Of a stretch of 55,420 nt of DNA, positions 11,757 to 30,449 are shown in pieces; the first letter of the stretch is position 1, and each line of letters opens with the position of its first letter. A program made the translations under genes and the position numbers. The DNA is from Lentisphaerae bacterium ADurb.BinA184 (GTDB lineage: Bacteria > Verrucomicrobiota > Lentisphaeria > Oligosphaerales > MVZH01). Below the pieces are notes generated by a model, which had not been told where the DNA came from, did no database searches, and was given only the letters and a program-made list of their open reading frames with translations. The stretch spans positions 1 through 55,420 of the forward strand of contig MVZH01000002.1 of NCBI GenBank assembly GCA_002068325.1, read 5' to 3'.

Positions 11757-14700
11757 TCACGTCGCGAGCGCGAGGAGCCAGTCGCGGTGCACGGCGAAAC
11801 GGACGGTTTGGCGGCGGCCGCCGGCGGCGTCGGCGATGATCCATGAGCGGTCGGGCTGCACGGCGGTGAGACGCCAGTTGGCGGCTCCGACCGTCAGGCC
11901 GACGCGGGCGGCCTTGGCCGCGGCCTCCTTGGCCACCCAAAGCTGGAGGAGCGGCGCCGCGCCCTCGACCGATCCGGTTTCCGCGAGTTTCATCTCGACG
12001 GGCGTGGCAATCTGTCCCGGCTCGAAATGCGGAGTCCGCAAAAGGGGCTCGAGGTCAATGCCGACCGGGCCGGGGCCGACCGCCGCGGCGGCGGCATGCC
12101 CCGAGTGCGCCAGGCTCACGGCGAGGGGCGGATGCCACGCGTCCGCGGATGCGGCCAGAGTCACCGCGGGGGCGCCGTTGGCCTCGTTGAAAACGGTGAT
12201 TTCGACCGGGTGGGGAAGGTGCCGTCCCTCGCCGCGGCGGCGGAGGGCGTCCAGCATCGCGTTCTTGACCGCGAGGCGCCCGCACAGCCACTGCAGGCGA
12301 CGGACGGGCGTCGTTTTGGCCGGCGGCATCTCCGCCGACTCGCGGACGGACAGGAAGAGGCTGCGTACGTGGGCCGTGCCGAGGCTGGCGAGGTCGTCGG
12401 CGGCGCTGAGCCAGCAGGCGGCGACATCCTCCGGCTGCCCGGCGAAATGCACCGGGGTGGCCAGCCGCATCTGCGTGGGCTCGCGCAGCGAGGTCACCAG
12501 GGCGGCGGACTCGGAGAGGATGGCGAGGGTCCATCCCCGGCCGCGCGCCCAGACGTGGCCGTCCCCGTCCTGGATCTCGAGGTCGTAGGTCATCTCCTTG
12601 CCGGGTGTGAAAGACGTGCGTTCGCCGTAGACGGGCAGGAGGCGTCCCGGGGGTGGCGGGGGGCGGTAGAACTCGATGGCTTCCATGGCCATGGGCAGGG
12701 CGAGCCGGGGCGGGACGGCGGAGGCGTGCAGCCCGGCGGCCTGCCAGGCGCCGTCGAGGAGCACCGGGTCGGTCAGCAGTGCAGGTGCCGACCCCCGCGT
12801 GAAGAGTCCGTCGGCCGGCAGGGACCGCAGCTCGGCGCGGAAGGTCTCCGGCCCCGCGGTCACCATCCGGCAGAGGCTCTGCAGCAGGGGACCGTGGAAG
12901 AGAAGCCCGCCGGTGTAGATGTCCGGCGCCCGCAGTGGCGACGGCGAGTCGTCGGCGGGGCGGGCAAAACGCGGCGTCACGGTCAGGCGGTAGCGTTCGC
13001 CAAAGAGGCATTCGGCGCTGAAGGCAGACTGGCCGTCGCGCTGGATTTCGCCGGCGACAAGCGTGAGCCCGTCGGCGGTTTCGGCGGGGCGGACGCGGAG
13101 CGTGAGCATGATCTCGTCGCAGTCCTCGAACGCCAACAGCTTGAGGGCGCGCACGCGCCGGAAGCCGGTCAGCCCCTGTCCGCGGGCCAGGAAGGCGGCG
13201 GCCTCGGCCAGCATTTCGAGGGCGAATGCGGCGGGGACGGTGGCCAGGCACTGAGCCGGCGGCTTGTAGTCGTGGACGAGGGCGAAGGCGTGGTCAACGA
13301 AACAGGGGAAATCGGCGAGCCGCAACGGGCACGCGAACGAGACCCAGCCGTCGGGGGCGCGGCCGAGGCAGTGCGTGATGAAGGGCATCCACGGCGGCGA
13401 TGGCTCACGGGCGGCGGCGCGCCCGCCGTGCGCCGCGGAGGCTGTCGCGGTTCCGGCCGCGTCTCCCGGCCACGGCTGTCGGTGAAGCGGGATCAGGGCT
13501 TCCGGGCTGCGCCGCGAGGGCGCGGCGACGGGCACCGCGGTCTCAAGGAGTCCCGCCAGGTTCACGCGGCAGCCGTTGACAAAGAGCTCGGCCGCGGCGC
13601 GCTGCAACTGGGTCAGGGGGTGCACGCCGTCCAAGTCGAGGGCGACGAAGGTCGCCGGGGCGGTGGGGGCGGTCCGGCTGGCCGGTGCTGCATCGCCCAA
13701 GGGGGCGGGAGAGGCGTCTGGCGTCGGCCCGCGGCGGTCTGGCGTCACGTCGTCCACGGCGGTTGTGCTGAACGAGCCCAGCCCGCAGTGCAGGAACAGG
13801 CGCGTGCCCTGGTCGCGGACCGTGCGCAGCGTCTGCCAGACGCGGGCGGGCCGGATGAGGTTGTCCGCGGCGGTCTCGGCCAGCGCGTCTTCCTGCACGT
13901 CGAACGGCCTGCCCGTCACCGAAGAGACGACCGCAGGGGCGGCGGGGCGTGGGTGGACGTGGCGGGCCACGAGGGCGCGCAGCCGTTCACGCAGGGGCAT
14001 CATCAGGGCGCTGTGCATCGGCGGGTAGGGCAGCCGGAGCGCGACACCCGCGCCGGCGGCCCGGACGTCGGCGACGAAGGCGTCAATCGCCGCGGCCGGC
14101 CCGCCGAGGCAGAACGTGACCGGGCTGATGTAAAGGGTGATGCAGACCGCGGGATGCTGGTCGAGGATGGTTCCGAGCTGTGCCTCACGCCCCTGGAAGA
14201 CCGCCGTCGTGCCGAGTGTGGACAGGTGGTACTCGGCGGCGGCGACCGGCCAGAGGTCGGCGAGCACCTCCGGCAGATCCAGGTGTCCGGCGGCGCCGAG
14301 GGCGGGGAGGTCGCCGATGGACTGGCCGAGGAAGCTGTCCGGCTCGACGCCGAGGCGGCGCGTCAGGAGCCAGCCGACCCAGTCGGCCATGAGTACGGTC
14401 GGCGGCACGAGGCTGCGGCGGTCGGGCGGCAGGTTGTCGAAGCGTAGGTTCCCGCCGTCCGCCGGGGCGGCGAGCGAGAAGCGGGCGCGCAGGCCGGCGG
14501 CCAGCCCGGGGGGGGCCGTTTCGGGCGGGGCGAGCAGCAAGCTGGTCGGCAGCGGGTCGTCCGGGTTGTGGTCGCGTGGCTCCTGCCCGTCGAGGAAACG
14601 GCGGACTTCCGGGAAGAGCATGGCGTGTGTGAGCAGATGTTCGGGCAGGTCGCCTTCGAGTCCGGGGTAGCCCACGCCGGGGAAGACGGCCGTGAGCCGC

Positions 14701-16220
14701 GGCGGCGCGGGCGTTGCGTCCCAGCCGAGGAAGACGTCCGCAACGGGCGGGGCGTCCGCATCGAGGCTGGCCAGGGCCGCATCCAGCAACCCGCACGCGC
14801 TCCCTGGCGCGGCGACGATGGCGGCGCGCACGGCTAGGCCGCCGGCGCTGGCGGCGGCCGGTGCCTCCGCGGCCAGCGCCGCGAACTCTGCGGCCGGCGC
14901 AGGGGATCCAAGGCGCGCCTGTGCGGCCTGCAACTGTGTACGGAGCGCGGCACGCGAATCCGCCGCGAAGGCGAGCAGTTCGGTGGGGCGTTCCAGCCCC
15001 GGCGCGGCGGGCCGGGTCGTCTCGTCGAGTGCTGCCTGGAGGAGGGCGCCGCCGACGTGTCCGGACGGGCCGCAGGCGAGGACGGCGGCGGTGCGGACTC
15101 CGCAGGCCGGGGGTTTGAGCCAAGGCCTGGCGCGCCGGCTGGTGTAGAAGCGGCTGCGGCACAGGGCCTCGCCCGGGGGCGCGGAACCCGGGGTGGGCGG
15201 CAGGATGCGGCAGGCGAGGGCGCGCGCCGTCTTGATCAGCGCCGCCAGCCCGGCCGCGTTGAGGGTCCAGCCAACGACGGGGGTCAGGGAGCCAATCGCC
15301 GTCGTGGCGGCTTCCGTGGTGCGGCCGCCGTACGCGTCCTGCAAGTCGGCGAGAACCCTGTCGTCAAGCCCGGGTGACACCCCGCCGGCCACCTCGATGT
15401 AGTCGGGGCACGCGCCGGCCCCGGCCGCATCGAGCGCGGCCCGGATTCCACTCCCGGCGCCGTCGCCGGAAACTGCGGACTCCGCAGACCCGTCGCCGAC
15501 GCCGGTGACAAGGGCGTGCACAGACTCGCCGCCGGCCGCGACGGTGGCGTAGGGCGCGAGGACGACGGCGCCGCCGCCCTCGCCGGGCAGAACGCCGGGC
15601 CGCGCTTCGGCCAGAAACTCGGGAAACCCCTGTTCGCAGAGGACTCCGTCCCTCCGCAACCGATGCCACCAAGCGGGGAGAGCCGGGCCGCTGACCCCGG
15701 CTAGGATGACGTGCCCGGCCGCACCCGCGCGAAGCCGTTGCGCCGCCGCGCGCAGCAGCGGGGCCAGGGCCGCGCCTTCAGACAAAGAGAACACGCGGAC
15801 AGCCCCGCCGATGCCGAGGGGCGCGGCGACTCCGGCGCGGACTGCCTCGACAGCGCCGGCGTCGGCCTCCCCGTCGTGCTCGCCGGCGATGAGCAGATCC
15901 GTCTGCGCCAGGCGGGCGGGCGACTCGGCCCCGGCGTCGCAGAGGGCGCGGACAACCAAGTCGCGCAACAGGGCCAGGTGCGGGTGGGAGCCGTCGTCAT
16001 CGAGGACGGGGGTACGCGGGTGCAGCCGGCAGGGAGTGGTGAAGAAGCCGCCGGTCACAGCGGCCGCAGGCACCGCCCCGCCGGCGCGTTCCGGCGGCAA
16101 CGGCCCCAGGAAGCGACGGCCGTTGACCACGCCGCGCCAGAAGGCCTCGAGGTCATGGGCGCCGGGGAAGCAGGCGCTCATTCCCACGATGGCCAGCGCG
16201 TTGTCGTTGGGGTTGGACAC
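11757..16220 (-). CDS. PKS / PUFA-synthase-like subunit B: inactive KS (CLF-like), AT-like, PKS-type dehydratase, C-terminal 4'-phosphopantetheinyl transferase
   Basis: A 1487-aa ORF with a GTG start. The N-terminus MSNPNDNALAIVGMSACFPGAHDLEAFW is a KS N-terminal signature. Domain motifs are listed in the sub-features. There is no ACP, KR or active KS, so this subunit must work with the 2371-aa subunit A. Confidence 0.85.
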   Translation of the reverse strand: MSNPNDNALAIVGMSACFPGAHDLEAFWRGVVNGRRFLGPLPPERAGGAVPAAAVTGGFFTTPCRLHPRTPVLDDDGSHPHLALLRDLVVRALCDAGAESPARLAQTDLLIAGEHDGEADAGAVEAVRAGVAAPLGIGGAVRVFSLSEGAALAPLLRAAAQRLRAGAAGHVILAGVSGPALPAWWHRLRRDGVLCEQGFPEFLAEARPGVLPGEGGGAVVLAPYATVAAGGESVHALVTGVGDGSAESAVSGDGAGSGIRAALDAAGAGACPDYIEVAGGVSPGLDDRVLADLQDAYGGRTTEAATTAIGSLTPVVGWTLNAAGLAALIKTARALACRILPPTPGSAPPGEALCRSRFYTSRRARPWLKPPACGVRTAAVLACGPSGHVGGALLQAALDETTRPAAPGLERPTELLAFAADSRAALRTQLQAAQARLGSPAPAAEFAALAAEAPAAASAGGLAVRAAIVAAPGSACGLLDAALASLDADAPPVADVFLGWDATPAPPRLTAVFPGVGYPGLEGDLPEHLLTHAMLFPEVRRFLDGQEPRDHNPDDPLPTSLLLAPPETAPPGLAAGLRARFSLAAPADGGNLRFDNLPPDRRSLVPPTVLMADWVGWLLTRRLGVEPDSFLGQSIGDLPALGAAGHLDLPEVLADLWPVAAAEYHLSTLGTTAVFQGREAQLGTILDQHPAVCITLYISPVTFCLGGPAAAIDAFVADVRAAGAGVALRLPYPPMHSALMMPLRERLRALVARHVHPRPAAPAVVSSVTGRPFDVQEDALAETAADNLIRPARVWQTLRTVRDQGTRLFLHCGLGSFSTTAVDDVTPDRRGPTPDASPAPLGDAAPASRTAPTAPATFVALDLDGVHPLTQLQRAAAELFVNGCRVNLAGLLETAVPVAAPSRRSPEALIPLHRQPWPGDAAGTATASAAHGGRAAAREPSPPWMPFITHCLGRAPDGWVSFACPLRLADFPCFVDHAFALVHDYKPPAQCLATVPAAFALEMLAEAAAFLARGQGLTGFRRVRALKLLAFEDCDEIMLTLRVRPAETADGLTLVAGEIQRDGQSAFSAECLFGERYRLTVTPRFARPADDSPSPLRAPDIYTGGLLFHGPLLQSLCRMVTAGPETFRAELRSLPADGLFTRGSAPALLTDPVLLDGAWQAAGLHASAVPPRLALPMAMEAIEFYRPPPPPGRLLPVYGERTSFTPGKEMTYDLEIQDGDGHVWARGRGWTLAILSESAALVTSLREPTQMRLATPVHFAGQPEDVAACWLSAADDLASLGTAHVRSLFLSVRESAEMPPAKTTPVRRLQWLCGRLAVKNAMLDALRRRGEGRHLPHPVEITVFNEANGAPAVTLAASADAWHPPLAVSLAHSGHAAAAAVGPGPVGIDLEPLLRTPHFEPGQIATPVEMKLAETGSVEGAAPLLQLWVAKEAAAKAARVGLTVGAANWRLTAVQPDRSWIIADAAGGRRQTVRFAVHRDWLLALAT
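11760..12323 (-). other. Integrated Sfp/AcpS-type 4'-phosphopantetheinyl transferase domain
   Basis: PVGIDLEPL is present (Asp1389 codon checked at 12054-12056), and LQLWVAKEAAAKA matches W-x-x-KEA-x-x-K. These are the two hallmark PPTase motifs. Confidence 0.7.
12471..13394 (-). other. PKS-type (double hot-dog) dehydratase domain
   Basis: LADFPCFVDHAFALVHDY...VPAAFALEM fits the H-x3-G/A-x4-P type motif; the His977 codon was checked at 13290-13292. The downstream LLTDPVLLDGAWQAAG fits the D-x3-Q motif. Confidence 0.6.
13776..14708 (-). other. Acyltransferase-like domain with variant nucleophile elbow GQSIG
   Basis: LTAVFPGVGYPG aligns with the FPGQGSQ start. FLGQSIGDLPALGAAG has Ser634, whose TCC codon was checked at 14319-14321. 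PYPPMHSALM aligns with the AFHS motif. No Arg was seen at the usual malonyl-carboxylate position. Confidence 0.5.
15036..16199 (-). other. KS-like domain lacking the Cys-His-His triad (chain-length-factor-like)
   Basis: At the position of the D-x-ACSS motif the sequence is VFSLSEGAALAPLL (no Cys). The EAHGTGT position reads YIEVAGGVSPG (no His). The GS-x-K-x-x-x-GH position reads IGSLTPVVGWTLNAAG (His replaced by Trp). Confidence 0.65.
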
Positions 16221-16293
16221 GGAACTGCCTGCCTCTGAGGTGCCTGCAAAACTCCCGCAAGCGCCGGTTTCATGTGTCAGGGTTCAGCACTTG

Positions 16294-16426
16294 ACGTTCG
16301 ACGTTCTGCGTTGGGCGTTCTGCGTTCTGCGTTCGGCGTTGAGCGTTCTGCGTTGAGCGTTCTGCGTTCGCCGTTCTGCGTTCTGCGTTCGCCGTTGGGC
16401 GCTCGCCGTTTGTCGTTCGTCGTTCA
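16294..16426. repeat. Heptamer tandem array, 19 units of CGTTCNN type (left arm)
   Basis: The hand parse is ACGTTCG ACGTTCT GCGTTGG GCGTTCT GCGTTCT GCGTTCG GCGTTGA GCGTTCT GCGTTGA GCGTTCT GCGTTCG CCGTTCT GCGTTCT GCGTTCG CCGTTGG GCGCTCG CCGTTTG TCGTTCG TCGTTCA. CAGGGTTCAG precedes it at 16278-16287. The array lies between the res stop (16563) and the subunit B start (16220). Confidence 0.9.
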
Positions 16427-16562
16427 TCTGGCCGCGAGGAATGAGTTCGCCCTGGCTGCGGACACCCAGGCCCAGTTCGAGCCGCACGTCTCCCGGCTCC
16501 GGCGTTGCCGGCGCTGCCGGGGATGTGTTCGCGGCCCGCGCCTGGGCCGGCCTGTTTGGGGG

Positions 16563-19229
16563 TCAGGCATCCCTGATAGCCGTTGTGATGGCGGAAAAGC
16601 CCCGCTCCGTCGGCATCACGAACAGGCAACGGCCGCCGCTGCGGGAGGCCCACACCGCGCCGACCGCCCGCTTCTCCTCGGCGTCGGTCCACAGGTGCGC
16701 GCCCTTGTACTCCACCACGAGAGAGCGGCCGTCCGTCAGCCGGCAGACGAAGTCGGGGTAAAACCAGTCCTTGGAAGTCTGCAGCCGGAACGACGTCGCC
16801 TTGCGCGCGAGGTTGCGCACCCAGAACTCCACCTCCGGGATCCCGTCGAGGAACTGCGCGCACTTGAACTCCTCCGTGGTGTTTCCGCCCGACGTGAGTT
16901 CCGCCAGCTCGCCCGGCTTCGGCCCGAAGTAGTGTTTCTTGAACTGGAAGCTCCCCTCGAACAGCCAGCTCGGCTCGTAGCTCATGGTTCGGAAGTTGAT
17001 GACCTTCTCGTCGCTGACCGCCAGGGGCGTGCCCGGGAGCAGGAACGCCTGGAACGCCGTGGCCCTCTCGGTCTCCCGGTGCTCCTGGATGCGGGCCTCG
17101 ACCTCGTCGCGCAGCCGGAACCGGTCGAGCGCCAGCAGGCCCACGTCCTCGATGCCGTGCCTCGCCATCAGTCCCCGGACGGCGTTCCGCAGGAAGGCCG
17201 CAGACTCACCGGCCGGGATGTCCCGGTGGTCGATGCGCTTGTCGAGCCAGGCGACGAGTCCCTCCAGCGTACACCCGCCAGTCGCCCCCAGCGCCAGCAC
17301 CTGCTGGTGCAGCCTGGCGACGAAATCGGCGTCCGGCACCTCCCGGAGCATGCTGGTCTGCACTTCCCCCTTCGTGCCGACGTCTACCAGGCCGGCGTAG
17401 CCCGCGGGCCGTTTCCGCGGATCGTAGTCTGCCCGGAGCGACGCGTCCTTGGTGCCGAGCCGCCACGGGTGTTCGAGGAGGAAGGTGCTTTCGAACTCGA
17501 ACAGGCCCCCCCCTTCGCGCACGCACAGGACCGGCACGGGGAAGTCGACCTTCCGTTCGAAGGGGGACGGCGCGCGCGTCGCGCCCGTGCCGCCGAACAC
17601 CCTCTCGGCCTCGCGCATGACGGCGACCGCCTCCTCGACCTTGCCCTTGCCGTCCTGCGACCTCACGCAGCTCGCCAGCTTCGCGGTCTCCGCCTGATCC
17701 AGCGGCACGAGCACCGTGATCTCGCCCGTCGCCGCGTCGACCTGCACCTTCCCGGCCAGCCCCGGCACCTGCGCCTGGGCCGCCGCCGCGTCGATGTCCG
17801 CCGGGGCGAGCCGCACCGTCCGCGGCTGGGCGCCGAGGGTCGGGGTGTTCGGCGGGATGGGGATGATGATGCGGGCGGCCTCGGCCGCCGTGAAGCCGTT
17901 GCTCTCCAGCGCGTCGCGCAGCTCCGCCAGGACCTCGCCAAGCGACGGGGAGACGGAGAAGACGTAGGAGCAGTTCAGGTCGGGGTGCCGCTTCGCCCGC
18001 GCGCCGGGGAGCCGCAGGACGCGCCCGACGATCTGCTCGATGGCCGTGGCCGACCGCGTCTCCCGCAGGCTGCAGAGCACGTAGGCGAAGGGGCAGTCCC
18101 AGCCCTCGCGCAGTTTCTGCACGGTGATGATGAAGCGCACGGGGGATTTCGACGAGGCGAGGTCCTCCGCGCCGGGCAGCTCGTCGAGGTTGCCGACGGA
18201 GATCTTCACCTCGTCCTTCGCGATGCCGAACTCGGCCACCAGCCGCTCGCGCAGGGGTTCGCACGCGTCCACCCGCTCTGCCTGGAGCAGCAGGACCGGC
18301 CGCAGGTACTCGGCGGTCGCCTGCGCCTCCGCCGCCGCGAGCCGCTCGAGGTCGCCCCGCAGCGTGACGGCCTCGGAGAGCAACTGGTCGCGCTGGCTGG
18401 GGTGCCGCGCAATGACGCGCAACGGCAGCTTGACCATGTCCGCCGCCTTCAGCTCCGCGGCCGAGACGTGGTGCAGCACGTTCGACGGGTTCTTGCTCCG
18501 CGCCGGCGTCGCCGTGAACTCGACGATGCACGACGGCTGCACGCTGCCGAGGGTGGCAAAGCTCAGGTCGGTGCGCGCGTTGTGGGCTTCGTCGACGATG
18601 ACGATCGGGCGGCGCAGCCGGAGCATGTTCACCAGCGACGGCTTCGGCTTACCGTCCACGCCGGGCAGCAGCTCGGCGAGCACGTTGAGCAGGTGCTCCG
18701 CGAACGCGCCGTTCTGGTCGTAGACTTTGCGCCCGGTCGTGTCCTCGACGCGGAAGCACTGGATCGTGGACACGATGACCACCGTCTGCCCTTCCGCGGT
18801 GGCGCGCGACAGCCGCAGAGCCTCCTCGATCGTCACGACCTCGACGGCGCCGCACGCCAGTTCCAGGGCGCGCCGGTAGGCGTGACGCGGGTCGCGTAGC
18901 GCCTCGGCGGTCTGGTTGAGGATGGTGTTGCTCGGCACCAGCCACAGCACCACGGCCCGCTCCGCGTGCAGCAGGTCCTGCATCGCGATGCCGGCGGCGT
19001 GGCAGGCGAGCAGCGTCTTGCCGCCGCCGGTCGGAACGCGCAGGCAGACGTAGGGCATCCCCGGCGTCAGCCCCGCCATGTGGACGGGGATGTACGGCAC
19101 GGGCTGGCGCCCGTTGCGCAGTTGCACTGCTTGGAAGGCCGCGTCGGGCCGTCCGTCCTTGGCGCACTGGCGGAAGAAGTCGGACAGCGAGCCGAGCACG
19201 CGCGTCTGGTAATCCTTGAGCGTGATCAT
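16563..19229 (-). CDS. res: Type III restriction enzyme, Res subunit (SF2 helicase plus PD-(D/E)XK nuclease)
   Basis: RVPTGGGKTLLA is the Walker A / motif I and IVIVDEAHNA is the DEAH box. The C-terminal YPDFVCRLTDGRSLVVEYKG is a PD...E-x-K nuclease motif. The start overlaps the mod stop by 4 nt (ATGA). Confidence 0.85.
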   Translation of the reverse strand: MITLKDYQTRVLGSLSDFFRQCAKDGRPDAAFQAVQLRNGRQPVPYIPVHMAGLTPGMPYVCLRVPTGGGKTLLACHAAGIAMQDLLHAERAVVLWLVPSNTILNQTAEALRDPRHAYRRALELACGAVEVVTIEEALRLSRATAEGQTVVIVSTIQCFRVEDTTGRKVYDQNGAFAEHLLNVLAELLPGVDGKPKPSLVNMLRLRRPIVIVDEAHNARTDLSFATLGSVQPSCIVEFTATPARSKNPSNVLHHVSAAELKAADMVKLPLRVIARHPSQRDQLLSEAVTLRGDLERLAAAEAQATAEYLRPVLLLQAERVDACEPLRERLVAEFGIAKDEVKISVGNLDELPGAEDLASSKSPVRFIITVQKLREGWDCPFAYVLCSLRETRSATAIEQIVGRVLRLPGARAKRHPDLNCSYVFSVSPSLGEVLAELRDALESNGFTAAEAARIIIPIPPNTPTLGAQPRTVRLAPADIDAAAAQAQVPGLAGKVQVDAATGEITVLVPLDQAETAKLASCVRSQDGKGKVEEAVAVMREAERVFGGTGATRAPSPFERKVDFPVPVLCVREGGGLFEFESTFLLEHPWRLGTKDASLRADYDPRKRPAGYAGLVDVGTKGEVQTSMLREVPDADFVARLHQQVLALGATGGCTLEGLVAWLDKRIDHRDIPAGESAAFLRNAVRGLMARHGIEDVGLLALDRFRLRDEVEARIQEHRETERATAFQAFLLPGTPLAVSDEKVINFRTMSYEPSWLFEGSFQFKKHYFGPKPGELAELTSGGNTTEEFKCAQFLDGIPEVEFWVRNLARKATSFRLQTSKDWFYPDFVCRLTDGRSLVVEYKGAHLWTDAEEKRAVGAVWASRSGGRCLFVMPTERGFSAITTAIRDA

Positions 19230-21435: not shown

Positions 21436-21866
21436 TCGCAAGGGGGAGAGTCGTGGCAGTCGTACAGCCCGCGCTCTTCCTTGGCCAGCTTGGCGGAGGC
21501 GGTGCGGATGCTACTCTTGAAGATGCGGATCAAGGCATCCGTTTCCTGCAACAGCGGCTCGACGGTAGACGGTGGCTCAACCAGCGGCACCCGCGCGACC
21601 AGGCCCAGTGCCCGGAGCGATTCGCGCAGTTCCTTGAGGCAGATTCCGAGCTTGTGTACGAAGTCGGCGCGAGATTCAGCCGCCTCCGCCTCACCGTGGT
21701 TGAAGTAGGGGCTCGTGCCGCACCGGAGGAGCTGTCCACCGACATGGTTGCCAGCCCGGGTCTTGACGAGCTTTTCGGTCAGGTCAATGATGGCCGCCGA
21801 GTACTCCAAGAGCCGCTCCTCCAAATCCCAGGTTCTGCCGCCACTGTGCCCTCGTGTGCCCTGCAT
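21423..21866 (-). CDS. Four-helix-bundle protein (23S rRNA intervening-sequence protein / Avd family)
   Basis: A GAGGAG Shine-Dalgarno lies 11 nt upstream. ...LLEYSAAIIDLTEKL...GNHVGGQLLRCGTSPYFNHGEAEAAESRADFVHKLGICLKELRESLRAL... matches the characteristic pattern of PF05635/TIGR02436-type proteins (L-x-RS-x-TS...N-x-x-E...DF-x-x-KL-x-I-x-x-KE-x-x-E). Confidence 0.8.
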   Translation of the reverse strand: MQGTRGHSGGRTWDLEERLLEYSAAIIDLTEKLVKTRAGNHVGGQLLRCGTSPYFNHGEAEAAESRADFVHKLGICLKELRESLRALGLVARVPLVEPPSTVEPLLQETDALIRIFKSSIRTASAKLAKEERGLYDCHDSPPCDVRR

Positions 21867-21883
21867 CGCCCAGTGCTCCTCAC

Positions 21884-21914
21884 TTCGCCGTTCTGCGTTC
21901 AGGGTTCAGGCAGG
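21884..21914. repeat. Short heptamer run upstream of the four-helix-bundle gene (CGTTC type, then AGGGTTC type)
   Basis: TTCGCCGTTCTGCGTTC (21884-21900) is the perfect reverse complement of GAACGCAGAACGGCGAA at 21242-21258 and at 21284-21300. It is identical to 16367-16383. It is followed by AGGGTTCAGG (21901-21910). Confidence 0.85.
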
Positions 21915-21970
21915 AATCGAGTCCAGGCGTCAGCCCCGGAAACATCGTGCGGTTCCCGACTGCGGTTCTT

Positions 21971-22006
21971 CCTGAACCCTGACACCCTGAACCCTGGCAC
22001 CTGAGC
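21971..22006. repeat. Heptamer run CCTGAAC CCTGACA (C) CCTGAAC CCTGGCA CCTGAGC
   Basis: CCTGAACCCT (21971-21980) is the exact complement of AGGGTTCAGG (21901-21910). The same CAGGGTTCAG word sits at 16278-16287 next to the left array. Confidence 0.8.
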
Positions 22007-22039
22007 AGCTACCCTAGCACCCGAAACCTGTATGCTCCG

Positions 22040-22062
22040 CTTGCAGAACCGCGTTCTGCAAG
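22040..22062 (-). terminator. Perfect 10-bp stem / 3-nt loop hairpin 12 nt after the stop of PKS subunit A
   Basis: The sequence is CTTGCAGAAC-CGC-GTTCTGCAAG. No U-tract follows on the minus strand, so its status as an intrinsic terminator is uncertain. Confidence 0.4.
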
Positions 22063-22073
22063 CAGCTCGTCCA

Positions 22074-25000
22074 TCATTCCATCATTGCACGATCCTGTGG
22101 GACGCCTGTGATCTGCGACAGCTTGTCCAGTGTGGCGCCGATGACGACCTCGACCGGGCCGGAGCGGTCGCGCAGTTCGCGCAGCAGGGCCTGGGCGGCG
22201 GCGGCCAACGGCAGGGGCTCGATGCCGCGCGCCCGCATCAGGGCCTGCAACGGCGCGTGCACCATGCCGCCTGCGAGCGGGCCCCAGTTGATCGCCTTGA
22301 CCGTCACGTGCGGCCAGCGGCCGGCGAGGGCCTCGGCCAGCTTGTTGAGGCATTCGTTGGCGGCGGCGTAGTCGGCCTGGAAGGCGTTGCCGAAACGGGC
22401 CGCGGCCGATGAGAAGAACACCAGGCCGCGCAACGTCTCCGGCCGCAGGCTCCCGGCCAGGACCTGAGCCGGGATCAGTTTGCTCTCGATGACCTCGGCC
22501 AGCGCGTCGGGCGGGCGGGAGGTGAGAGGGCCGTCGTGGAGGATCCCGGCGGCATGGATGACCAGGTCCAGCCGTCCGAAGCGCGCGTACAGCGCGTCAA
22601 GGAACGCGGCCAGCCGGCCGGCGTCGCGGCCGTCCACGGCATGGTATTCGACGCGGGCCCCGGCTGCGGACAGCGCCGCGATCGTGTGTCGAATGTTACG
22701 CTGGCGGAGGAGGTTGCGGAGGATGGGTTCGACGTGCGCGGGCGGGGGGGCGGCGCCTGCGGCGCGGGCTTCGGCGATGAGGGCCTGGCGCAGGCTGGCC
22801 TCGTCCTCGATGCCGTGCGTCGCCGCGGGTTCCGGGCCGTCCGGGAGTGGGGTGCGGCCGGTGAGGATGAAGGTGGCGGGCGCCTGCGTGGCCAGCTCAG
22901 CCAGCATGGTGGCGGTGACGCCGTACGCCCCGCCGACGGCGAGCACGACGCTGTCCGCACGTACGTCGAGCCCGCGGTTGCCGGGGGTTGTCTCGGTGAG
23001 CACGGGGCGGACGAAGCGGTCCGTCCGCACCCCGGTCTCGGTTCCGGCGGCGTCGCGGGCGGCGGCGAGCAGGCCGATCAGGGTCTGCCCTGGCGGCGCG
23101 TCGGGCGCGACGTCTATGATCGCGGCTCGTGCCTCCGGCCACTCGCGGGCCAGGGACTTTGTGAAGCCCGCGGCGGCGGCCTGCGGCCAGCGGAGATCGG
23201 CGGCGCGGGAGAGGCCGAACGTGCCATCGAGGCCGGTGACGGTCAGCAGCGTGGCCGGACGGCCGGCGCGCCGCAGCTCCGGCTCGAAGACGGCGGCCAC
23301 GTTGAAGAGCGCGGCGGTCAGCTCCGTGGCCTGCCTGGCGGGCGGCGCCTCGCCGCCGGCCGGGGCGAAGACAAGGGGGAGCAGGTTGAGAAGGGTTCCG
23401 ACCGAGAACGCCGGATCGCTGCGCAGGGCCTCGGCGGCGGCGGTCAGCGAATCCCGCGAAAGGAGGTCCGCGGTCAGCCTGCGCTCGCCGACACGCCGGA
23501 ATGCCTCGCCATGGGAGAGCCGCCAGACGGGGACCGGGGCCGCACCGTCCTCGAAGCCGGGGAAGCGCGCCAGGCGCGGGGAGTCGCCGACGATCAGCAC
23601 GCCGCGCCCGTCGGCCCCGGCGATGATGGCATCCAGGGACTCGTCGCTGTCAAGCCGGACGGGCTGGGCGCTGAGCACTTGCCGTTGCACCGTGGCCGGC
23701 GGCGGGGCGGGCGAGGGCGAGAGGGCGGGGGTGTCGCGGCCGGCCGGTTTCGTCGCCTCCGGGGATGCCGGCGAGAGGGCGCGGCGGCGGTCGTAGTAGG
23801 CGACGATGTCGTTGAGGGTCTTCAGCTGCATGAAATCAACCAGGAGGTCCTCCTGCGGCCGGCCTTCGCCCAGCAGCACAGGGTGATAGGGTTTGAGCTG
23901 GGCGAACAGCTCCATCACCTTGATCGAATCAATGCCCAGCCCCGATTCGAGCGGCAGGCTGGGATCGAGCATGTCCTTCGGGTAGCCGGTGCGGGCGCTG
24001 AGCGCTTCGATCAGATCGGCGCGGAACGTCGCCGTCGGCGGCGTGGCGCCGGCGTCGGGCGTGGCGACGGGGACGGAAGGCGGCGGCGCGGTCGGGGCGG
24101 GCGCAGGCGCGGGGGCAACGGGCAACGGCGCGAGTTCCGGCGGCAGCGCGATCGCCGGCAGTTGCGGCACGGGCGCGGCCGGGAGCACGGCATCGCCGAG
24201 GACGCTGTCCAGCCCGGCCGGCGCGGCGGCTCTCGCGGGACGCCGGGAACCCGCTTCCGACCGCGCCGCGAAGTCGGCCCAGGGGACGGTGTCGGTGAGC
24301 GTGATGACGTGGCGGGTCGGGGTGGGGCGCCGGGCGGCCTCCTCGTCTTTGAGGAGCGTGGCCAGCGGCACGGGTTCGAGGCCGCGGTTGGCGAACCACG
24401 GCGACAGCTCGATCTCGGCCCCTTCGGCGACGAGCGCGGCCAGCAGCCGGGCCAGCCCGATGCGGCTGTCGGAGTCGCCGGTATCCAGCGGCAGGCAGCG
24501 GTGCGGGCGTCCGGCGAGGATCTCGTCAATCAACCGCGACAGGATGTTGCCGGGGCCGAGTTCGACGAACAGCCGCGCCCCGTCGTCATGCATGCGCTCG
24601 ATCATGGCCGCGAACGCGACGGGTTCGGTGATGTGCCGGCACAGCAGGTGCGCCATCCTGCCTGCCGACCCCTCGTACGGCGCGGCGGTGACATTGCTGT
24701 AGACCGGAATCGCGGGCCGCCCGAAGGCAAGGCCGGCCTGGAAGTCCGCCAACTGCCGCGCCGCGGGCCGCATGGCGGGACTGTGGAAGGCGCCGCTGAC
24801 GGCCAGGCGCACGCAACGTACACCCTGCGCCTCGAACCGCGCGCAGACCGCGGCCAGCCCCGCCTCCGGCCCCGAGACGACGACCTGCCGCGGCGCGTTG
24901 AAATTGGCGGCGCCGACACCGCCCCCGACCTCGGCAAGAACCGCGGCCACCGTCTCGCGGTCGGCCATGACCGCCGCCATGCCGCCCGGGATCGCGGCCG

Positions 25001-28000
25001 CCGCCGCCTGCATGACCCGGCCGCGGCGCGTGCACAGCCGGATCAGATCGTCGAAGGCCAGCACGCCCGCGGCGTGCAGCGCGGACAGCTCGCCGAAGCT
25101 GTGCCCGCCGGCCATCGCCGGGCGCAGGCCGTAACCGCGCAGGGTCTGCCAGGCCAGCGCCTCCGCCACCGCCAGCGCGGGCTGCGCGCAGTCGGCCGAC
25201 CGCAGGGTCTCGATGCGCTGCAGAATCTCCTGCGGGGTGAATCCGGCCGGAGGGTAGAGAACCGCCGACAGCGCGGTGGGAAGCTCGGTCGCGGCGGTGG
25301 CGTCGGCCGTCTCGATGAGGCGGACGGCGTCGCGGTTGCCGAGGGCGAGCTCGCGGAACATATCGATCCGCTGTGACCCCAGGCCGGGGAAGACGACCGC
25401 CACGCATGGCGGCGCGGCCAGTGCGCCCTCTCCCCAGGCGCAGCCTTCGACGCCGCCGGGATCTCCCGCGTCCAGGCGGGCGACGACCTCGGCCAGGCGG
25501 GTGCGCAGCGTCGCCACGTCCGGCGCCGTCAGGGCGAGTCGTACGGCGGCCGCCTTGCCCGAGGCGCGGCGGCGGTGCGACTCGTCAAGATGGCAGCTGG
25601 CGGCGAGGCGTTCGAGGCTGGGCAGAGCCTCGGCGGCGAGGGCGGCGTTCAGGGTTTCAAGCCGCTCCCGCAGCTCGCCCCGCGACGGCGCCTGCCAGGC
25701 GAACAGTTCGACCGGCGGCGCCGACAGGTTCGGCGGCGGCGGCTGGGCCGGGGAGGCGAACTCCTCAAGAACAAGGTGGTAGTTGGTGCCGCCGAAGCCG
25801 AAGGCGCTGACGCCGGCCCGGCGCGGGTGATCCCCGCGGCGGATCCACGGCCGCAACGCCGTGTTGATGTAGAAGTGGCTCCCTGCGGCCAGCCCGCGCG
25901 GGTTGGGGGTGCGCACGTTCACCGTCGGCGGGAGCACCTGTTGCGAGAGCGCCAGCGTGGCCTTGATCAGGCCCGCCAGGCCGGCCACCGTCTTGGTGTG
26001 CCCAAGGTTGGACTTGACCGAGCCGACCGCGCAACGCCCCGGCCCGCCCGCCGTGGCGGGGACAAACTCGTCCAGCGCCTGCAGCTCGATGCGGTCGCCG
26101 AGGCTGGTGCTGGTGGCGTGGGCCTCGATGAGCTCGACGGTGTCGGGGGCCAGGCCGGCGTCGTCGTACGCCCTCTGCAACGCCAGCTTGATGGATGCCT
26201 TGGCCGGGGCGGTCAGGCTGGCCTCGCGGCCGTCGCTGGAGAATCCCACCCCGCGGATGACGGCGTAGATGCGGTCGCCGTCGCGCACGGCGTCGTCGAG
26301 GCGTTTGAGGAGGACGGCGGCGGCGCCCTCGGCCAGCACGATGCCGTCGGCGCTCTCGTCGAACGGGCAGCTCACGTCGCGCGGGGAGAGGGCCTGGGTG
26401 CGCGAGAAGGCCGTGTAGGCGAACGGGCCCATGCCGCGGTCGACGCCGCCGACCAGGACGGCGTCGCTGGCGCCCGCCCGCAGGAGGGCCACGGCGTGCG
26501 CGAGGGCGGCCAGCGAGGAGGCGCAGGCCGCGTCAATGATGAGGTTCTCGCCGTGCAGGTCGAGCAGATTGGCGACGCGGCCGGCAGTCAGGTTGGGCAG
26601 GAAACCGGGGAAGCTGTCCTCGGTCCACTCCGGCAGGACGGCGCGGAAGGCCGCCAGGACCTGCTCACGGGCGCGCTCGCCGAGAGCCGTCTGCGACAGC
26701 AGGTGCGGCAGGCTGCTGCGGAGGCCGTAGCCGAGCCCGAGGTTGTCCTGGCCGGAATTGGTGAATACGGCCGAGACGCGGCTGCGCTCCAGGGGCCGCG
26801 AGCCGTAGCCGGCGTCTTCAAGGGCGCGCCGGGCCACCACCAGCGACAGCAGCTGCACCGTGCTGATGGCCTTGACGGCGACTGGCGGAATCCGGTACTC
26901 GACGGGATCGAAGACGACGGGGTCGAGGAAGCTGCCCTTGCGGCTGTAGATGTGTTCGGGGGCCTTGCGGTCGGGGTCATAGTAGAGGCTGGCGTCGAAC
27001 AGCTCGGCCGGGACGTCCCGGATGGCGTTGAAGCCCCGCTGGATGTTCTGCCAGTATTCGCGCGTGCCGGGTGACTGCGGGAAGAGGGCGCTCATGCCGA
27101 CGATGGCGATGGGGGCGGGTGGCGGGCGCGTCCGTGCGGCCGGGGGAGGGCGGGGCGACCGTCCCGCCCAGGCGTCAAGGCGCCCGGCCGATTCGGTGCA
27201 GAGGCCGTGATGCAGCTCGGCGAGCGTCAGCGGCGTGTCACGGAGGATCGCGGCCTGCCCGAGCATGAACAGTCCCTGGTCGCGCTGGATGTCGGGCGGG
27301 GCCGCAACCAGGGCGGCGGAGTCGTCGAGAAACCGTTGCGGCTCTTCGGCGCCCTCCTCGGCGGCGGCGCGGCGCACCCCCTTGGCGGCGAGGCGGAGCC
27401 GGCCGAGGGTGAGCTTTTCGAGGCGGAGGCGGGTTTCGCCGTCGCCGAGCCCGGCCTCGATGAGGCGTTGGCGGCTCTCATCGAACGCGTGGGCGAAGGG
27501 GGTGTCGGCGCAGCGCATTTCGTGTCCCGGGCCGGTGCACAGCAGCCGGGTACGGGTGCAGGCGAGGGCGGTCGCCTGGAACGATGCGGTCAGCGCGCCG
27601 GTCTTCACGCACTCGCGGGTGAAAAGGTATGGGGTTCCCAGCAGTAGTCCGACCTTGACCCCGCGTTCGGCCAGCGGGGCCGCCAGCACGGCCAGCATGG
27701 CGGCGGAGAGGCGGTCGTGGAGCCCGCCGGCGAAGAGGACTTCGAGGTCGGCGGCTGTGTGGTCGGGCAGCGCGGCGACGATGTCGAGGACGTGGCGCCA
27801 CAGCGGGAAGGCGAACAGGGGGCCGACATGGCCGCCGCACTCGCGGCCCTCAAAGACGAAGCGCCGGCAACCGGCGGCGAGGTGGTCGCGGAACAGCCCC
27901 GGTGTGGGCGCATGGAGGAAGGCTTTGATGCCAGCCCCCTCGAAGGCGGCGGCCTGATCGGGCCGGCCGCCGGCCAGGATGACGGCCCGCGGCTGTGCTT

Positions 28001-29189
28001 CGCACACGCATCCGGCCTGTTCGCGGTAGAGCGCGGGCGGCAGGAAGCCGAGGATGCCCGCGGCCCACGGTTGCCCGCCGACGGCCTCACGCGTGCGGGC
28101 AAACAGCTCGCGGATGCGGGCTGGCGTCAACACGCCGAGGGCAAGGCAGCTCAGCGCCCCGGCCTCGCTGACGGCGCGGGCGAACTCGGGGCAGTCGCTG
28201 ACCCGCGTCATGGGGCCCTGGACGATCGGCAGGGCCGTGCCGAGGCTGGCGGCCACGCCATGGCCCGGGGCCAGAATGCGCTGGCGCGCGGCCAGGGCCG
28301 GGAGGCGCGCCGCGGCGCCGCGGAAGCCCTCGAGAATGCCGGCGAGGCTGGCGCCTTGCCGGGCGAGGGAAGCGGCCAGCCCCATGCCTTGCCCAACCTC
28401 GAAAGGGTAGAGCGAAGCCAACGCCAGCGGCTGGAAGCCTGGCACGGCCACGCGCAGTTCCGTGCCGCGGCTGACGGTGTCGGCGAGGGCGGCGGCGGAC
28501 GGCAGGATGCGGGGGATCCACGTGCGGTAGTGGCGGTTGGAGCGGTCGTGCAGGCAGGAGGTCTCCGTCCCGTCCGCCTGCATGAAGAGCGAGCGCAGCG
28601 TGTCGGGCATCGCCATCTCACGGGCCAGCCAGAGCTCCTCGCGCAGGCAGATGCCGCATCCGGCGGCGCGGGCCGCCGCGGCGGTCTCCGGCGACCACGC
28701 ACCCTCGATCCACACCGGGGCCCTGAACCGCGGCGCCATCTGCGCCAGCACGAAGGAGGAGAGTTCCGCGTTGAAGCCGCCCGCCTCGCCCGCCTTCAGC
28801 ACCAGTCCCTCCGCCCCGGCCGCCAGGTACGCCGGCCCGTTCTCGGGAACATGGCACTCGACGAGGACACGCCCCGCGCGAGGGCGTGCCAGCCCGACGG
28901 CCCCGGCCACCGCGGCCGGCTCGGCGGCCTCCTCGCAGATGACGACGACCGGGATCCGGGCCGGCACCCCTTCGGCGGCCAGCCACTCGCCCGCCGTGGC
29001 CGCCGGCACGGCTAGCCCCCACGAGGAGTCCGGCGGCATCGGGGCGAAGCAGGCCTCCAGGGCCGTCCGTCCGGGCGGTGGCTCGGCGCCGGCTTGGGCG
29101 ATGGCGACGGCACCGCAACGGCCGGCCGCCGCCAGGGCGTAGCGGCACTCCGGCCGCAACGGTAGCATCACGATTTCGGTCTCGGTCAT
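22074..29189 (-). CDS. PKS / PUFA-synthase-like subunit A: tandem NMO-type enoyl reductase, KS, AT, single ACP, KR
   Basis: A 2371-aa ORF. All catalytic motifs are present (see the sub-features). Confidence 0.9.
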   Translation of the reverse strand: MTETEIVMLPLRPECRYALAAAGRCGAVAIAQAGAEPPPGRTALEACFAPMPPDSSWGLAVPAATAGEWLAAEGVPARIPVVVICEEAAEPAAVAGAVGLARPRAGRVLVECHVPENGPAYLAAGAEGLVLKAGEAGGFNAELSSFVLAQMAPRFRAPVWIEGAWSPETAAAARAAGCGICLREELWLAREMAMPDTLRSLFMQADGTETSCLHDRSNRHYRTWIPRILPSAAALADTVSRGTELRVAVPGFQPLALASLYPFEVGQGMGLAASLARQGASLAGILEGFRGAAARLPALAARQRILAPGHGVAASLGTALPIVQGPMTRVSDCPEFARAVSEAGALSCLALGVLTPARIRELFARTREAVGGQPWAAGILGFLPPALYREQAGCVCEAQPRAVILAGGRPDQAAAFEGAGIKAFLHAPTPGLFRDHLAAGCRRFVFEGRECGGHVGPLFAFPLWRHVLDIVAALPDHTAADLEVLFAGGLHDRLSAAMLAVLAAPLAERGVKVGLLLGTPYLFTRECVKTGALTASFQATALACTRTRLLCTGPGHEMRCADTPFAHAFDESRQRLIEAGLGDGETRLRLEKLTLGRLRLAAKGVRRAAAEEGAEEPQRFLDDSAALVAAPPDIQRDQGLFMLGQAAILRDTPLTLAELHHGLCTESAGRLDAWAGRSPRPPPAARTRPPPAPIAIVGMSALFPQSPGTREYWQNIQRGFNAIRDVPAELFDASLYYDPDRKAPEHIYSRKGSFLDPVVFDPVEYRIPPVAVKAISTVQLLSLVVARRALEDAGYGSRPLERSRVSAVFTNSGQDNLGLGYGLRSSLPHLLSQTALGERAREQVLAAFRAVLPEWTEDSFPGFLPNLTAGRVANLLDLHGENLIIDAACASSLAALAHAVALLRAGASDAVLVGGVDRGMGPFAYTAFSRTQALSPRDVSCPFDESADGIVLAEGAAAVLLKRLDDAVRDGDRIYAVIRGVGFSSDGREASLTAPAKASIKLALQRAYDDAGLAPDTVELIEAHATSTSLGDRIELQALDEFVPATAGGPGRCAVGSVKSNLGHTKTVAGLAGLIKATLALSQQVLPPTVNVRTPNPRGLAAGSHFYINTALRPWIRRGDHPRRAGVSAFGFGGTNYHLVLEEFASPAQPPPPNLSAPPVELFAWQAPSRGELRERLETLNAALAAEALPSLERLAASCHLDESHRRRASGKAAAVRLALTAPDVATLRTRLAEVVARLDAGDPGGVEGCAWGEGALAAPPCVAVVFPGLGSQRIDMFRELALGNRDAVRLIETADATAATELPTALSAVLYPPAGFTPQEILQRIETLRSADCAQPALAVAEALAWQTLRGYGLRPAMAGGHSFGELSALHAAGVLAFDDLIRLCTRRGRVMQAAAAAIPGGMAAVMADRETVAAVLAEVGGGVGAANFNAPRQVVVSGPEAGLAAVCARFEAQGVRCVRLAVSGAFHSPAMRPAARQLADFQAGLAFGRPAIPVYSNVTAAPYEGSAGRMAHLLCRHITEPVAFAAMIERMHDDGARLFVELGPGNILSRLIDEILAGRPHRCLPLDTGDSDSRIGLARLLAALVAEGAEIELSPWFANRGLEPVPLATLLKDEEAARRPTPTRHVITLTDTVPWADFAARSEAGSRRPARAAAPAGLDSVLGDAVLPAAPVPQLPAIALPPELAPLPVAPAPAPAPTAPPPSVPVATPDAGATPPTATFRADLIEALSARTGYPKDMLDPSLPLESGLGIDSIKVMELFAQLKPYHPVLLGEGRPQEDLLVDFMQLKTLNDIVAYYDRRRALSPASPEATKPAGRDTPALSPSPAPPPATVQRQVLSAQPVRLDSDESLDAIIAGADGRGVLIVGDSPRLARFPGFEDGAAPVPVWRLSHGEAFRRVGERRLTADLLSRDSLTAAAEALRSDPAFSVGTLLNLLPLVFAPAGGEAPPARQATELTAALFNVAAVFEPELRRAGRPATLLTVTGLDGTFGLSRAADLRWPQAAAAGFTKSLAREWPEARAAIIDVAPDAPPGQTLIGLLAAARDAAGTETGVRTDRFVRPVLTETTPGNRGLDVRADSVVLAVGGAYGVTATMLAELATQAPATFILTGRTPLPDGPEPAATHGIEDEASLRQALIAEARAAGAAPPPAHVEPILRNLLRQRNIRHTIAALSAAGARVEYHAVDGRDAGRLAAFLDALYARFGRLDLVIHAAGILHDGPLTSRPPDALAEVIESKLIPAQVLAGSLRPETLRGLVFFSSAAARFGNAFQADYAAANECLNKLAEALAGRWPHVTVKAINWGPLAGGMVHAPLQALMRARGIEPLPLAAAAQALLRELRDRSGPVEVVIGATLDKLSQITGVPQDRAMME
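22140..23672 (-). other. Ketoreductase domain (structural plus catalytic subdomains)
   Basis: VVLAVGGAYGVTATMLAELA is the Rossmann motif. FSSAAARFGNAFQADYAAANECL carries the catalytic Tyr in YAAAN. Confidence 0.75.
23790..24032 (-). other. Single acyl carrier protein domain
   Basis: LESGLGIDSIKVMELF carries Ser1755 (codon checked at 23925-23927). An Ala/Pro-rich linker precedes it. Only one such motif occurs in the protein. Confidence 0.85.
24510..25406 (-). other. Acyltransferase domain (active)
   Basis: VVFPGLGSQ is present. GGHSFGELSALHAAG carries Ser1364 (AGC codon checked at 25098-25100). VSGAFHSPAM is also present. Confidence 0.85.
25755..27113 (-). other. Ketosynthase domain (active)
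   Basis: IAIVGMSALFPQSPGTREYWQNI is the KS N-terminus. IIDAACASSLAAL carries Cys889 (TGC codon checked at 26523-26525). EAHATSTSLGD and GSVKSNLGHTKTVAG supply the two His residues. Confidence 0.85.
27360..29189 (-). other. Tandem nitronate-monooxygenase-type (PfaD-like) enoyl-reductase region; first copy degenerate
   Basis: The second copy has ALPIVQGPMTRVSD and FEGRECGGHVGP, which are PfaD / trans-ER hallmarks. The first copy has LKAGEAGGFNAELSSFVL, an EAGGH-like motif with His replaced by Phe. Confidence 0.6.
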
Positions 29190-29267
29190 ATCCCACTCGC
29201 AACGGGGCCGCGGTTCGGTGACGTCAGGCCCGCACCATACGTGGCCGGACGGACGGTGTCAATCGGG

Positions 29268-30430: not shown

Positions 30431-30449
30431 ACGACAACGGCCTCGTGCG

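Follow-up and report, generated by a model that had tools for sequence, protein, structure and literature searches.

The first 55,420 nucleotides of contig MVZH01000002.1 (GenBank assembly GCA_002068325.1) of Lentisphaerae bacterium ADurb.BinA184, referred to here as the window, harbour two giant genes on the minus strand, designated gene A and gene B, whose two polypeptides on balance probably make up an iterative type I fatty-acid synthase of the Ars kind. Judged by its sequence, gene A is a member of the ArsA family, a large group of type I fatty-acid synthases, while the product of gene B appears to join two didomains, one PfaB-like and one ArsD-like, in a single chain. An earlier reading of the same DNA (the original prediction) had placed tandem enoyl reductase (ER), ketosynthase (KS), acyltransferase (AT), acyl carrier protein (ACP) and ketoreductase (KR) domains on one protein, and KS-like, AT-like, dehydratase (DH) and phosphopantetheinyl transferase (PPTase) domains on the other, and this order was borne out by Pfam, hhalign and AlphaFold. 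The further proposal of an undescribed synthase type is contradicted by the homology to ArsA/ArsD and by the abundance of the long form of gene B in public genomes. The recommended annotation is that of an Ars-type fatty-acid synthase whose ArsD-like subunit is extended and whose two genes are kept apart by a presumably mobile restriction-modification (R-M) cassette.

Organization of the locus

In the window, whose G+C content is ∼70%, both giant open reading frames (ORFs) were found to be intact at the ends listed below, and the G+C content at third codon positions (GC3; 0.90 in gene A and 0.88 in gene B) provides a strong coding signal. Identical proteins are present in three other assemblies. 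The two genes are not adjacent, as a foreign-looking stretch of 5.85 kb (16221-22073) intervenes.

22074-29189, minus strand: gene A, 2371 aa, ArsA-type type I fatty-acid synthase subunit (pseudo-ER, ER, KS, malonyl-AT, ACP, KR)
11757-16220, minus strand: gene B, 1487 aa, pseudo-KS, atypical AT, DH and PPTase

Gene A, the proposed chain-building subunit

The following domains were delineated in the product of gene A.

28275-29189, minus strand: ER1 (residues 1-305), FabK-fold pseudo-enoyl-reductase (hhalign, AF2/Foldseek)
27120-28274, minus strand: ER2 (residues 306-690), flavin mononucleotide (FMN)-type FabK-like enoyl reductase with the motif ECGGH454VGP (Pfam NMO)
25605-27113, minus strand: KS (residues 693-1195), C889/H1024/H1064 (Pfam; motifs DAACASS, EAHATST, NLGHTK)
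24528-25394, minus strand: malonyl-type AT (residues 1266-1554), GHS1364FG/R1389/H1469 (Pfam; NCBIfam fabD, E 6e-58)
23790-24047, minus strand: single ACP (approximately residues 1715-1800), S1755 in LGIDS being the phosphopantetheine serine (PP-binding, motif scan)
22260-23702, minus strand: KR and structural subdomain (approximately residues 1830-2310), GGAYGVT at 2086 and YAAANE at 2274

Pfam matches cover an NMO/FabK-type ER (318-612), KS (693-1092, E 6e-59), AT (1266-1554), PP-binding (1725-1771) and KR (2081-2306), and the catalytic residues of KS, AT, ACP, KR and ER2 are all intact; with its complete triad, the KS is predicted to be active. The top NCBIfam model is that of PfaA (TIGR02813), which scores 880 bits and thus falls under its cut-off of 1010. 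The claim of a single ACP stands, since only one PP-binding match was obtained, even at E <= 1 in a search of the linker alone, so that a second ACP was not detected in gene A; the sole other G.DS motif (residue 1659) lies within a proline-rich linker.

Residues 1-305 gave no match to Pfam, yet the presence of a first ER domain was corroborated by both profile-profile alignment and structure modelling. In hhalign, residues 13-284 align with residues 330-665 of the ER (probability 97.7%, E 1.5e-12). The AlphaFold model of residues 1-305 has a mean predicted local distance difference test score (pLDDT) of 89.3, and its best Foldseek matches are FabK structures (template modelling score, TM, 0.73-0.75; E 1e-11). 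The region is present in essentially all of the 120 homologues examined. In the case of residues 1-690, the model is confident as well (pLDDT 91.4, predicted TM score 0.93), and this single confident unit of ER1 and ER2 suggests an intramolecular pseudo-dimer.

The original prediction had described the reductase as a PfaD-type ER fused to KS-AT-ACP-KR. The fusion is real, whereas the PfaD label does not hold, as ER2 is FabK-like both by sequence and by fold. Sequence searches with ER2 matched only FabK/NMO entries in the PDB and, within NCBIfam, only the FabK model TIGR03151; fold comparison gave a TM of 0.85-0.87 to FabK (E 1e-17) versus 0.43-0.50 to PfaD (E 1e-8). Both ER domains are closer to FabK than to PfaD, and ER2 is related to PfaD at the superfamily level only. 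His454 of ER2 is invariant (120/120 homologues) and corresponds to the proposed catalytic residue of FabK. The matching column of ER1 contains R, W, L or F (F139 in gene A) and never His (0/120), for which reason ER1 probably has no catalytic activity of its own and acts as a partner of ER2.

Gene B, the partner subunit

The product of gene B was divided into four domains.

14961-16220, minus strand: KS', pseudo-ketosynthase (residues 1-420), with E148/A278/W318 in the Cys/His/His positions
13731-14723, minus strand: AT* (residues 500-830), GQS634IG and H736 retained (Pfam and alignments)
12471-13394, minus strand: DH (residues 943-1250), PKS-type double hot-dog, H977/D1156/Q1160 (Pfam PS-DH)
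11760-12353, minus strand: PPTase (residues 1290-1487), two ACPS-fold halves, GID1389LE1391 and K1431EAAAK (Pfam ACPS, alignment)

In Pfam, gene B yields two weak KS matches (8-45 and 245-344) followed by AT (622-811), PS-DH (1107-1239) and ACPS (1385-1460), and NCBIfam AcpS-type models match at 1302-1381. No FabA-type family occurs among the Pfam matches (E <= 0.01) of gene A or gene B. The assignment of the DH to the polyketide synthase (PKS) type, with no FabA-like domain on either protein, and the recognition of an integrated PPTase were thus both correct.

The N-terminal KS-fold domain had been called CLF-like, that is, similar to a chain-length factor, and located on the other polypeptide without a partner KS in cis. 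The location was confirmed and the label was not. Alignment with intact partner KS domains revealed a deletion of ∼55 aa in the N-terminal half, and the motifs DAACASS, EAHGTG and KSMIGH of the relatives read SLSEGAA, EVAGGVS and VVGW in gene B. Because all three catalytic residues as well as ∼55 residues are gone, the domain is designated a pseudo-KS rather than a classical chain-length factor. AT* is likewise atypical: Acyl_transf_1 of Pfam matches it only at profile positions 79-264, i.e. over the core, and both the GQGxQ motif and the segment with the malonyl-binding Arg are missing (a deletion lies opposite R1389 of gene A).

These features resemble the published description of PfaB, in which a pseudo-KS scaffold devoid of Cys-His-His is joined to an AT whose GxSxG motif has its His replaced (by Tyr) and which retains a Ser-His dyad without the Arg; PfaB transfers long-chain acyl groups and sets the final product (PMC12895367). 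Gene B shares the KS fold without Cys-His-His, the replaced His of the AT GxSxG motif, the Ser-His dyad and the lack of a malonyl-binding Arg. It differs in that its didomain is fused to DH-PPTase instead of standing alone. That C-terminal part (943-1487) aligns with the DH-ACPS (ArsD-type) protein of Methylocaldum (31% identity over 558 aa, E 2e-63), and an alignment of 23 sequences shows little or no variation in the columns of DH H977/D1156/Q1160 and of the PPTase motifs GIDLE and KEAAAK. Gene B and its best relatives share no more than 26-36% identity.

Relationship to the Ars family

In Ars systems, the fatty-acid synthase passes ACP-bound C22-C26 chains straight to the type III PKSs ArsB/ArsC (PMC6274091, PMC4824345). 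Among the candidates scored, 3812 homologues of gene A were found at E <= 1e-30, the best 120 of which have the Pfam set NMO-KS-AT-KR in common, some also carrying PKS-type DH families; precomputed Pfam lists show the ACP (PF00550) for only some of the homologues. One homologue, from Methylocaldum marinum (P0049), is named “type I fatty acid synthase ArsA”. In the Methylocaldum locus L003, ArsA is followed by a type III PKS and then by a DH-ACPS protein of 616 aa, which is the layout of the ars operon; the ACP of this ArsA, absent from the precomputed list, was detected by domain BLAST. Searches of solved structures returned generic PKS, FabD and FabF matches only, and no ArsA/ArsD.

Compared with Ars (arsABCD of Azotobacter vinelandii; its architecture as read from the loci of Methylocaldum and Beijerinckia and from secondary literature), gene A has the same order ER-KS-AT-ACP-KR, a fused FMN-type ER and one ACP. 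In both systems, a second polypeptide combines DH with PPTase, the DH is of the PKS type and not of the FabA type, and there is no thioesterase. The window differs in that it has no type III PKS genes, gene B carries an additional N-terminal pseudo-KS/AT of ∼930 aa, the synthase genes are parted by the R-M insertion, and the KS-AT of gene A falls outside the type III PKS-associated clade. With regard to the type III PKS, tblastn with a Methylocaldum query gave nothing at E <= 1e-3 in the 55 kb window, and no chalcone-synthase family was present in the Pfam matches of the 27 candidate genes scanned across it.

The phylogeny of first-subunit KS-AT regions was reconstructed by neighbour-joining (855 columns, 60 sequences, 100 bootstraps; PfaA, HglE and A. 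vinelandii sequences were not part of the tree). The type III PKS-associated clade received 99% bootstrap support and excluded the window. Its grouping with two loci whose partners have a dead KS (L013 and L018) was supported by 96%, and the further inclusion of a planctomycete/cyanobacterial group by 92%; a group with GHSxG-class partners received 82%. The window pairs with L004, a metagenome contig, at 69%, and the tree leaves the deeper placement of this pair unsettled. The KS-AT of gene A is 42-50% identical to every ArsA-like group, as opposed to 32-34% to the modular and enediyne-named (JGI) PKS outgroups. By these measures the locus is placed inside the ArsA-like superfamily and outside its characterised clade; to this extent the original prediction was not refuted, the KS-AT of gene A not being inside the characterised type III PKS-associated clade.

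Survey of long-form partners

An exhaustive HMMER search with the DH-PPTase half of gene B collected 707 cluster representatives at E <= 1e-10. The best 149 of these comprise 58 short proteins (<= 700 aa), 59 long ones (>= 1250 aa, with the match C-terminal) and 32 of intermediate length. The closest relative of gene A (47% identity), on L004, is followed by a gene for a KS-AT-DH-ACPS protein of 1571 aa, which shares 33% identity with gene B across 1339 aa. A query with a long partner from Streptomyces matched >7800 proteins at E <= 1e-50; all of the 120 matches listed carry KS, AT and ACPS families of Pfam, nearly all have a PKS-type DH in addition, and those for which a source gives a name bear a generic one. 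The long KS-AT-DH-PPTase partner is thus common in public genomes.

The genomic context was inspected in 80 loci obtained by a scan of one genome per species and annotated by domain BLAST; the scan missed the source genome because the PPTase motif of gene B reads WVAKE, not WCAKE. Type III PKS genes were sought with a single query (E <= 1e-6, within 10 kb). Wherever such a gene was found, the partner is a short DH-PPTase (17/17 loci, in Methylocystis, Methylocaldum, Beijerinckia, Massilia, Duganella and Paraburkholderia), and no such gene was detected within that distance in any of the long-form loci, 56 in number (Planctomycetota, Streptomyces, Yinghuangia, Acidobacteriota, Chloroflexota, Burkholderiales, Myxococcales, Poribacteria, Verrucomicrobia). 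The partners form a length series consisting of KS-AT-DH-PPT, KS'-AT-DH-PPT, AT-DH-PPT and DH-PPT.

Long-form partners share with gene B the domain order and the pairing with an ER-KS-AT-ACP-KR gene, at an identity of ∼26-36%. Their KS, however, keeps the C-H-H triad in 88 of 114 cases (77%), as opposed to the dead KS of the window; about 20 are dead like gene B. The dead-KS partners have a median length of 1424 aa and come from several phyla, and two of them stand beside ER-KS-AT-ACP-KR genes (L013 and L018, from a Syntrophobacteraceae metagenome-assembled genome (MAG) and a deltaproteobacterial MAG). With respect to the AT motif, ∼50 of the 114 long partners are of the GHSxG class (mostly non-planctomycete) and 37 of the GQSxG class, which takes in the window, L004 and planctomycete MAGs. 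Across the surveyed loci the number of ACPs ranges from 1 to 4, and some first subunits have a DH of their own; many long-form relatives differ from the window by having 2-4 ACPs or a DH in the first protein.

Several planctomycete MAG loci (L016, L017, L021, L024, L025, L033) contain a split relative, encoded as KS-AT-ACP, a separate KR and KS-AT-DH-PPTase, and no fused ER was seen in the available stretch of these loci. In L024, which was checked with Pfam, the split synthase is followed by genes for HlyD, for an ABC ATPase and for two permeases of the FtsX/MacB type, and L016, L025 and L033 have a HlyD-like match at the position of the HlyD of L024. This set is reminiscent of the DevBCA glycolipid exporter. 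Sulfotransfer_3-family genes adjoin or lie near the long-partner gene in L004 (22020-23261), L005, L021, L030 and L046, which hints that some members of the family may make sulfated lipids or olefins.

Proposed mechanism and product

Under the Ars-type reading, the malonyl-type AT of gene A would load malonyl units on the single ACP, the KS would carry out the condensation, KR would reduce the keto group and ER2 the enoyl group, with ER1 probably holding ER2 in a pseudo-dimer. Gene B, like ArsD, would supply the DH in trans together with the PPTase that activates the ACP. As for the pseudo-KS/AT of gene B, we infer that it handles the long acyl chain, most likely by off-loading it from the ACP, a step which in the canonical ars operon is performed by ArsB/ArsC, absent from the window. 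A chain-handling AT is the best reading because of the PfaB-like anatomy and because the extension and type III PKS genes occur in an either/or fashion.

The product is likely to be a saturated, probably very long acyl chain and not a polyunsaturated fatty acid (PUFA) or polyene, saturation being the default expectation since an ER is present and an isomerising FabA-type DH is not. The reduced long-chain acyl product suggested in the original prediction was therefore a sensible guess. Its chain length would follow Ars, from which alone it is taken; Miyanaga et al. reportedly found in 2008 that ArsA/ArsD build C22-C26 chains from malonyl-CoA alone.

The main alternative to off-loading concerns the starter. 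In this case, the pseudo-KS/AT would be a priming module, the AT loading a medium or long acyl-CoA (for example, one derived from type II fatty-acid synthesis, FAS II) on the ACP for elongation by gene A, with release taking place elsewhere. AT* lacks malonate-binding features while keeping its Ser-His dyad, as such a module would, and the active KS of 88/114 long partners fits a role in priming or first condensation in those relatives. In gene B, however, the KS is dead, so that no priming condensation could occur in cis, and off-loading agrees better with the finding that the extension and the type III PKS genes, which in Ars act at the release step, exclude each other. Priming is thus regarded as rather unlikely, and off-loading by AT* is ranked above it as the most likely role.

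Several observations nevertheless weigh against the assignment to an Ars-type synthase with an off-loading AT. The KS-AT of gene A branches outside the type III PKS clade with its 99% support, and its pairing with L004 reaches only 69%. Genes for an acceptor, a thioesterase, a sulfotransferase or a type III PKS were not found in the 55 kb window. An insertion of 5.85 kb breaks the operon, and the expression of gene B is predicted only. The likeness to PfaB is a residue pattern drawn from a published description and not a direct sequence comparison, and the residue preceding the serine is Gln in gene B and Tyr in PfaB. Moreover, PfaB moves the acyl group from CoA to ACP in vitro, and therefore AT* of gene B may work in either direction, loading or off-loading.

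The insertion between the two genes

The DNA separating gene A from gene B contains the following elements.

16221-22073, minus strand: 5.85 kb insertion splitting the operon, in which the G+C content falls to 0.57-0.65
16563-19229, minus strand: type III restriction endonuclease (res; Pfam, NCBIfam)
19226-20890, minus strand: DNA methyltransferase (mod; Pfam, NCBIfam)
21423-21866, minus strand: four-helix-bundle gene (23S rRNA IVP family; Pfam, NCBIfam)
16277-16429, minus-strand sense: (GAACGCA)n heptamer array, right-hand arm (TRF, 18.7 copies)
21218-21438, plus-strand sense: (GAACGCA)n heptamer array, other arm (about 23-29 copies)

The two heptamer arrays bracket the R-M genes in inverted orientation, with arms of ∼150 nt (149) that are 80% complementary and 4.8 kb apart. 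A search for the heptamer pattern gave 24 matches versus 0.38 expected, and elsewhere in the window the pattern occurs once (21889-21900), also within the insertion. The arrays may mark the termini of a mobile cassette, or they may pair within a read-through transcript. An insertion-free allele was not found, since the three other assemblies either carry the insertion or have contigs that break inside it; contigs of other assemblies break at the heptamer arrays.

A putative sigma-70-like promoter was located upstream of gene A.

29234-29262, minus strand: TTGACA-17-TATGGT, 45 nt upstream of the start codon of gene A

It is a consensus match only, in a region with 3 such matches versus 0.5 expected, and none was found upstream of gene B.

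In L004, the closest relative, genes A and B overlap by 1 nt. The 5.85 kb inserted between genes that overlap there, together with the loss of C/H/H and ∼55 residues from the KS and the mere 26-36% identity of gene B to its best relatives, might be taken to indicate a decaying remnant, in which the R-M insertion uncoupled the genes, gene B is losing its function and no product is made. This seems distinctly unlikely: both ORFs are intact with a GC3 of 0.88-0.90, the catalytic residues of DH and PPTase are conserved, partners with a dead KS are a recurrent class found in several phyla, identical proteins occur in three other assemblies, and all inserted genes lie on the same strand, which makes read-through possible.

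Comparison with Pfa, PKSE and other synthases

Gene A has PfaA as its best NCBIfam model, and both Pfa (PfaA-E) and the system of the window are iterative, distributed over several polypeptides and equipped with an FMN-type ER. The window differs from Pfa in having one ACP, no KS-CLF pair, no FabA-type DH/isomerase, a PfaA score below the cut-off, a FabK-like ER, and both the ER and the PPTase in fused form. The enediyne PKSs (PKSE) have the same six domains, KS-AT-ACP-KR-DH-PPTase, with the PPTase integrated; they are, however, single polypeptides without ER, whereas the window has two polypeptides and tandem ER domains. The statement that the locus encodes neither a classical PUFA synthase nor a PKSE was accordingly upheld, and all five differences from canonical Pfa listed in that prediction (fused ER, single ACP, CLF-like domain on the other polypeptide, PKS-type DH, integrated PPTase) are real. 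Four of them (fused ER, single ACP, PKS-type DH, integrated PPTase) are hallmarks of Ars, and therefore do not define a new type. The swf cluster of a sponge symbiont was also considered and set aside, as SwfA (KS-AT-DH-ER-KR-ACP) with its reductase-sulfotransferase partner has a different architecture.

The single ACP of Ars, which is Type P of Shulse and Allen, was already noted in their 2011 catalogue, where related types with a single ACP and integrated PPTase are listed as well (PMC3098273).

A hitherto undescribed type of synthase for secondary lipids, akin to Pfa or PKSE and with an unpredictable product such as a hydrocarbon precursor, would agree with the position of gene A outside the characterised Ars clade. 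The literature found contains no product assignment for the long-partner variant, searches for the two-protein architecture gave nothing specific, and database names are generic. Some relatives also adjoin genes for sulfotransferases, enzymes that drive olefin formation in other systems. Yet every domain and the arrangement map onto ArsA, ArsD and a PfaB-like didomain, the architecture is abundant in sequenced genomes, and related types are among those catalogued by Shulse and Allen; in addition, an ER is present, unlike in PKSE, and the window has no sulfotransferase. A novel type in this sense is considered very unlikely. What remains of the claim is that the long-partner variant, though widespread, is functionally uncharacterised.

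Flanking genes

Divergent from the synthase genes, positions 30375-37188 encode a TolC-like outer-membrane factor and three HlyD-family proteins, one of which includes a fused GAF domain and another a fused peptidase M50 domain. Their location beside the synthase is only a hint of export, and the flanks of the window share no more than weak HlyD-family similarity with those of the relatives. Directly downstream of gene B lies a gene for a RNase_H_2/RecB-like nuclease (10378-11322), and the same arrangement is found in another assembly (L087). A Uma2-family putative endonuclease gene occupies positions 3330-4070.

Further away, a rhomboid gene (49048-50262) precedes a gene (50259-53750) encoding a 1163-aa fusion protein in which an MFS transporter is combined with a PlsC-type acyltransferase and with an AMP-binding enzyme, and which we take to resemble the LplT-Aas fusions of lysophospholipid recycling. 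Short tandem arrays, including (GGTGGAC) x 9.9 at 44325-44395, are situated at 44212-44510 in an intergenic region upstream of the gene for pyruvate phosphate dikinase (41302-44028, minus strand). A neighbouring gene in the window carries DUF1559 and N-terminal methylation motifs, which are typical of planctomycetes.

Significance

It can tentatively be proposed that the long-partner systems constitute a widespread, uncharacterised group of synthases for very long fatty-acid chains, with a PfaB-like AT on the DH-PPTase subunit in place of the type III PKS as release or transfer device. If so, the window may represent an evolutionary intermediate on the way from a two-KS synthase through a dead-KS form to the minimal ArsD (DH-PPT), which may have arisen when type III PKSs took over off-loading. 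The planctomycete product could then be an exported envelope lipid, given the DevBCA-like exporters beside the relatives and the TolC/HlyD set upstream in the window.

In the case of the window itself the message is more modest, namely its annotation as an Ars-type synthase. If the broader proposal is true, the ArsA-like superfamily, known from alkylresorcinol systems, would extend far beyond them, and thousands of genomes, many of them of Streptomyces, would make an unidentified long-chain lipid by means of a two-protein synthase. The either/or occurrence of type III PKS and KS-AT extension, the graded loss of this extension across the partners and the tandem pair of a dead and a live FabK-like reductase would provide handles on product release by iterative type I fatty-acid synthases and PKSs and on the evolution of ArsD.

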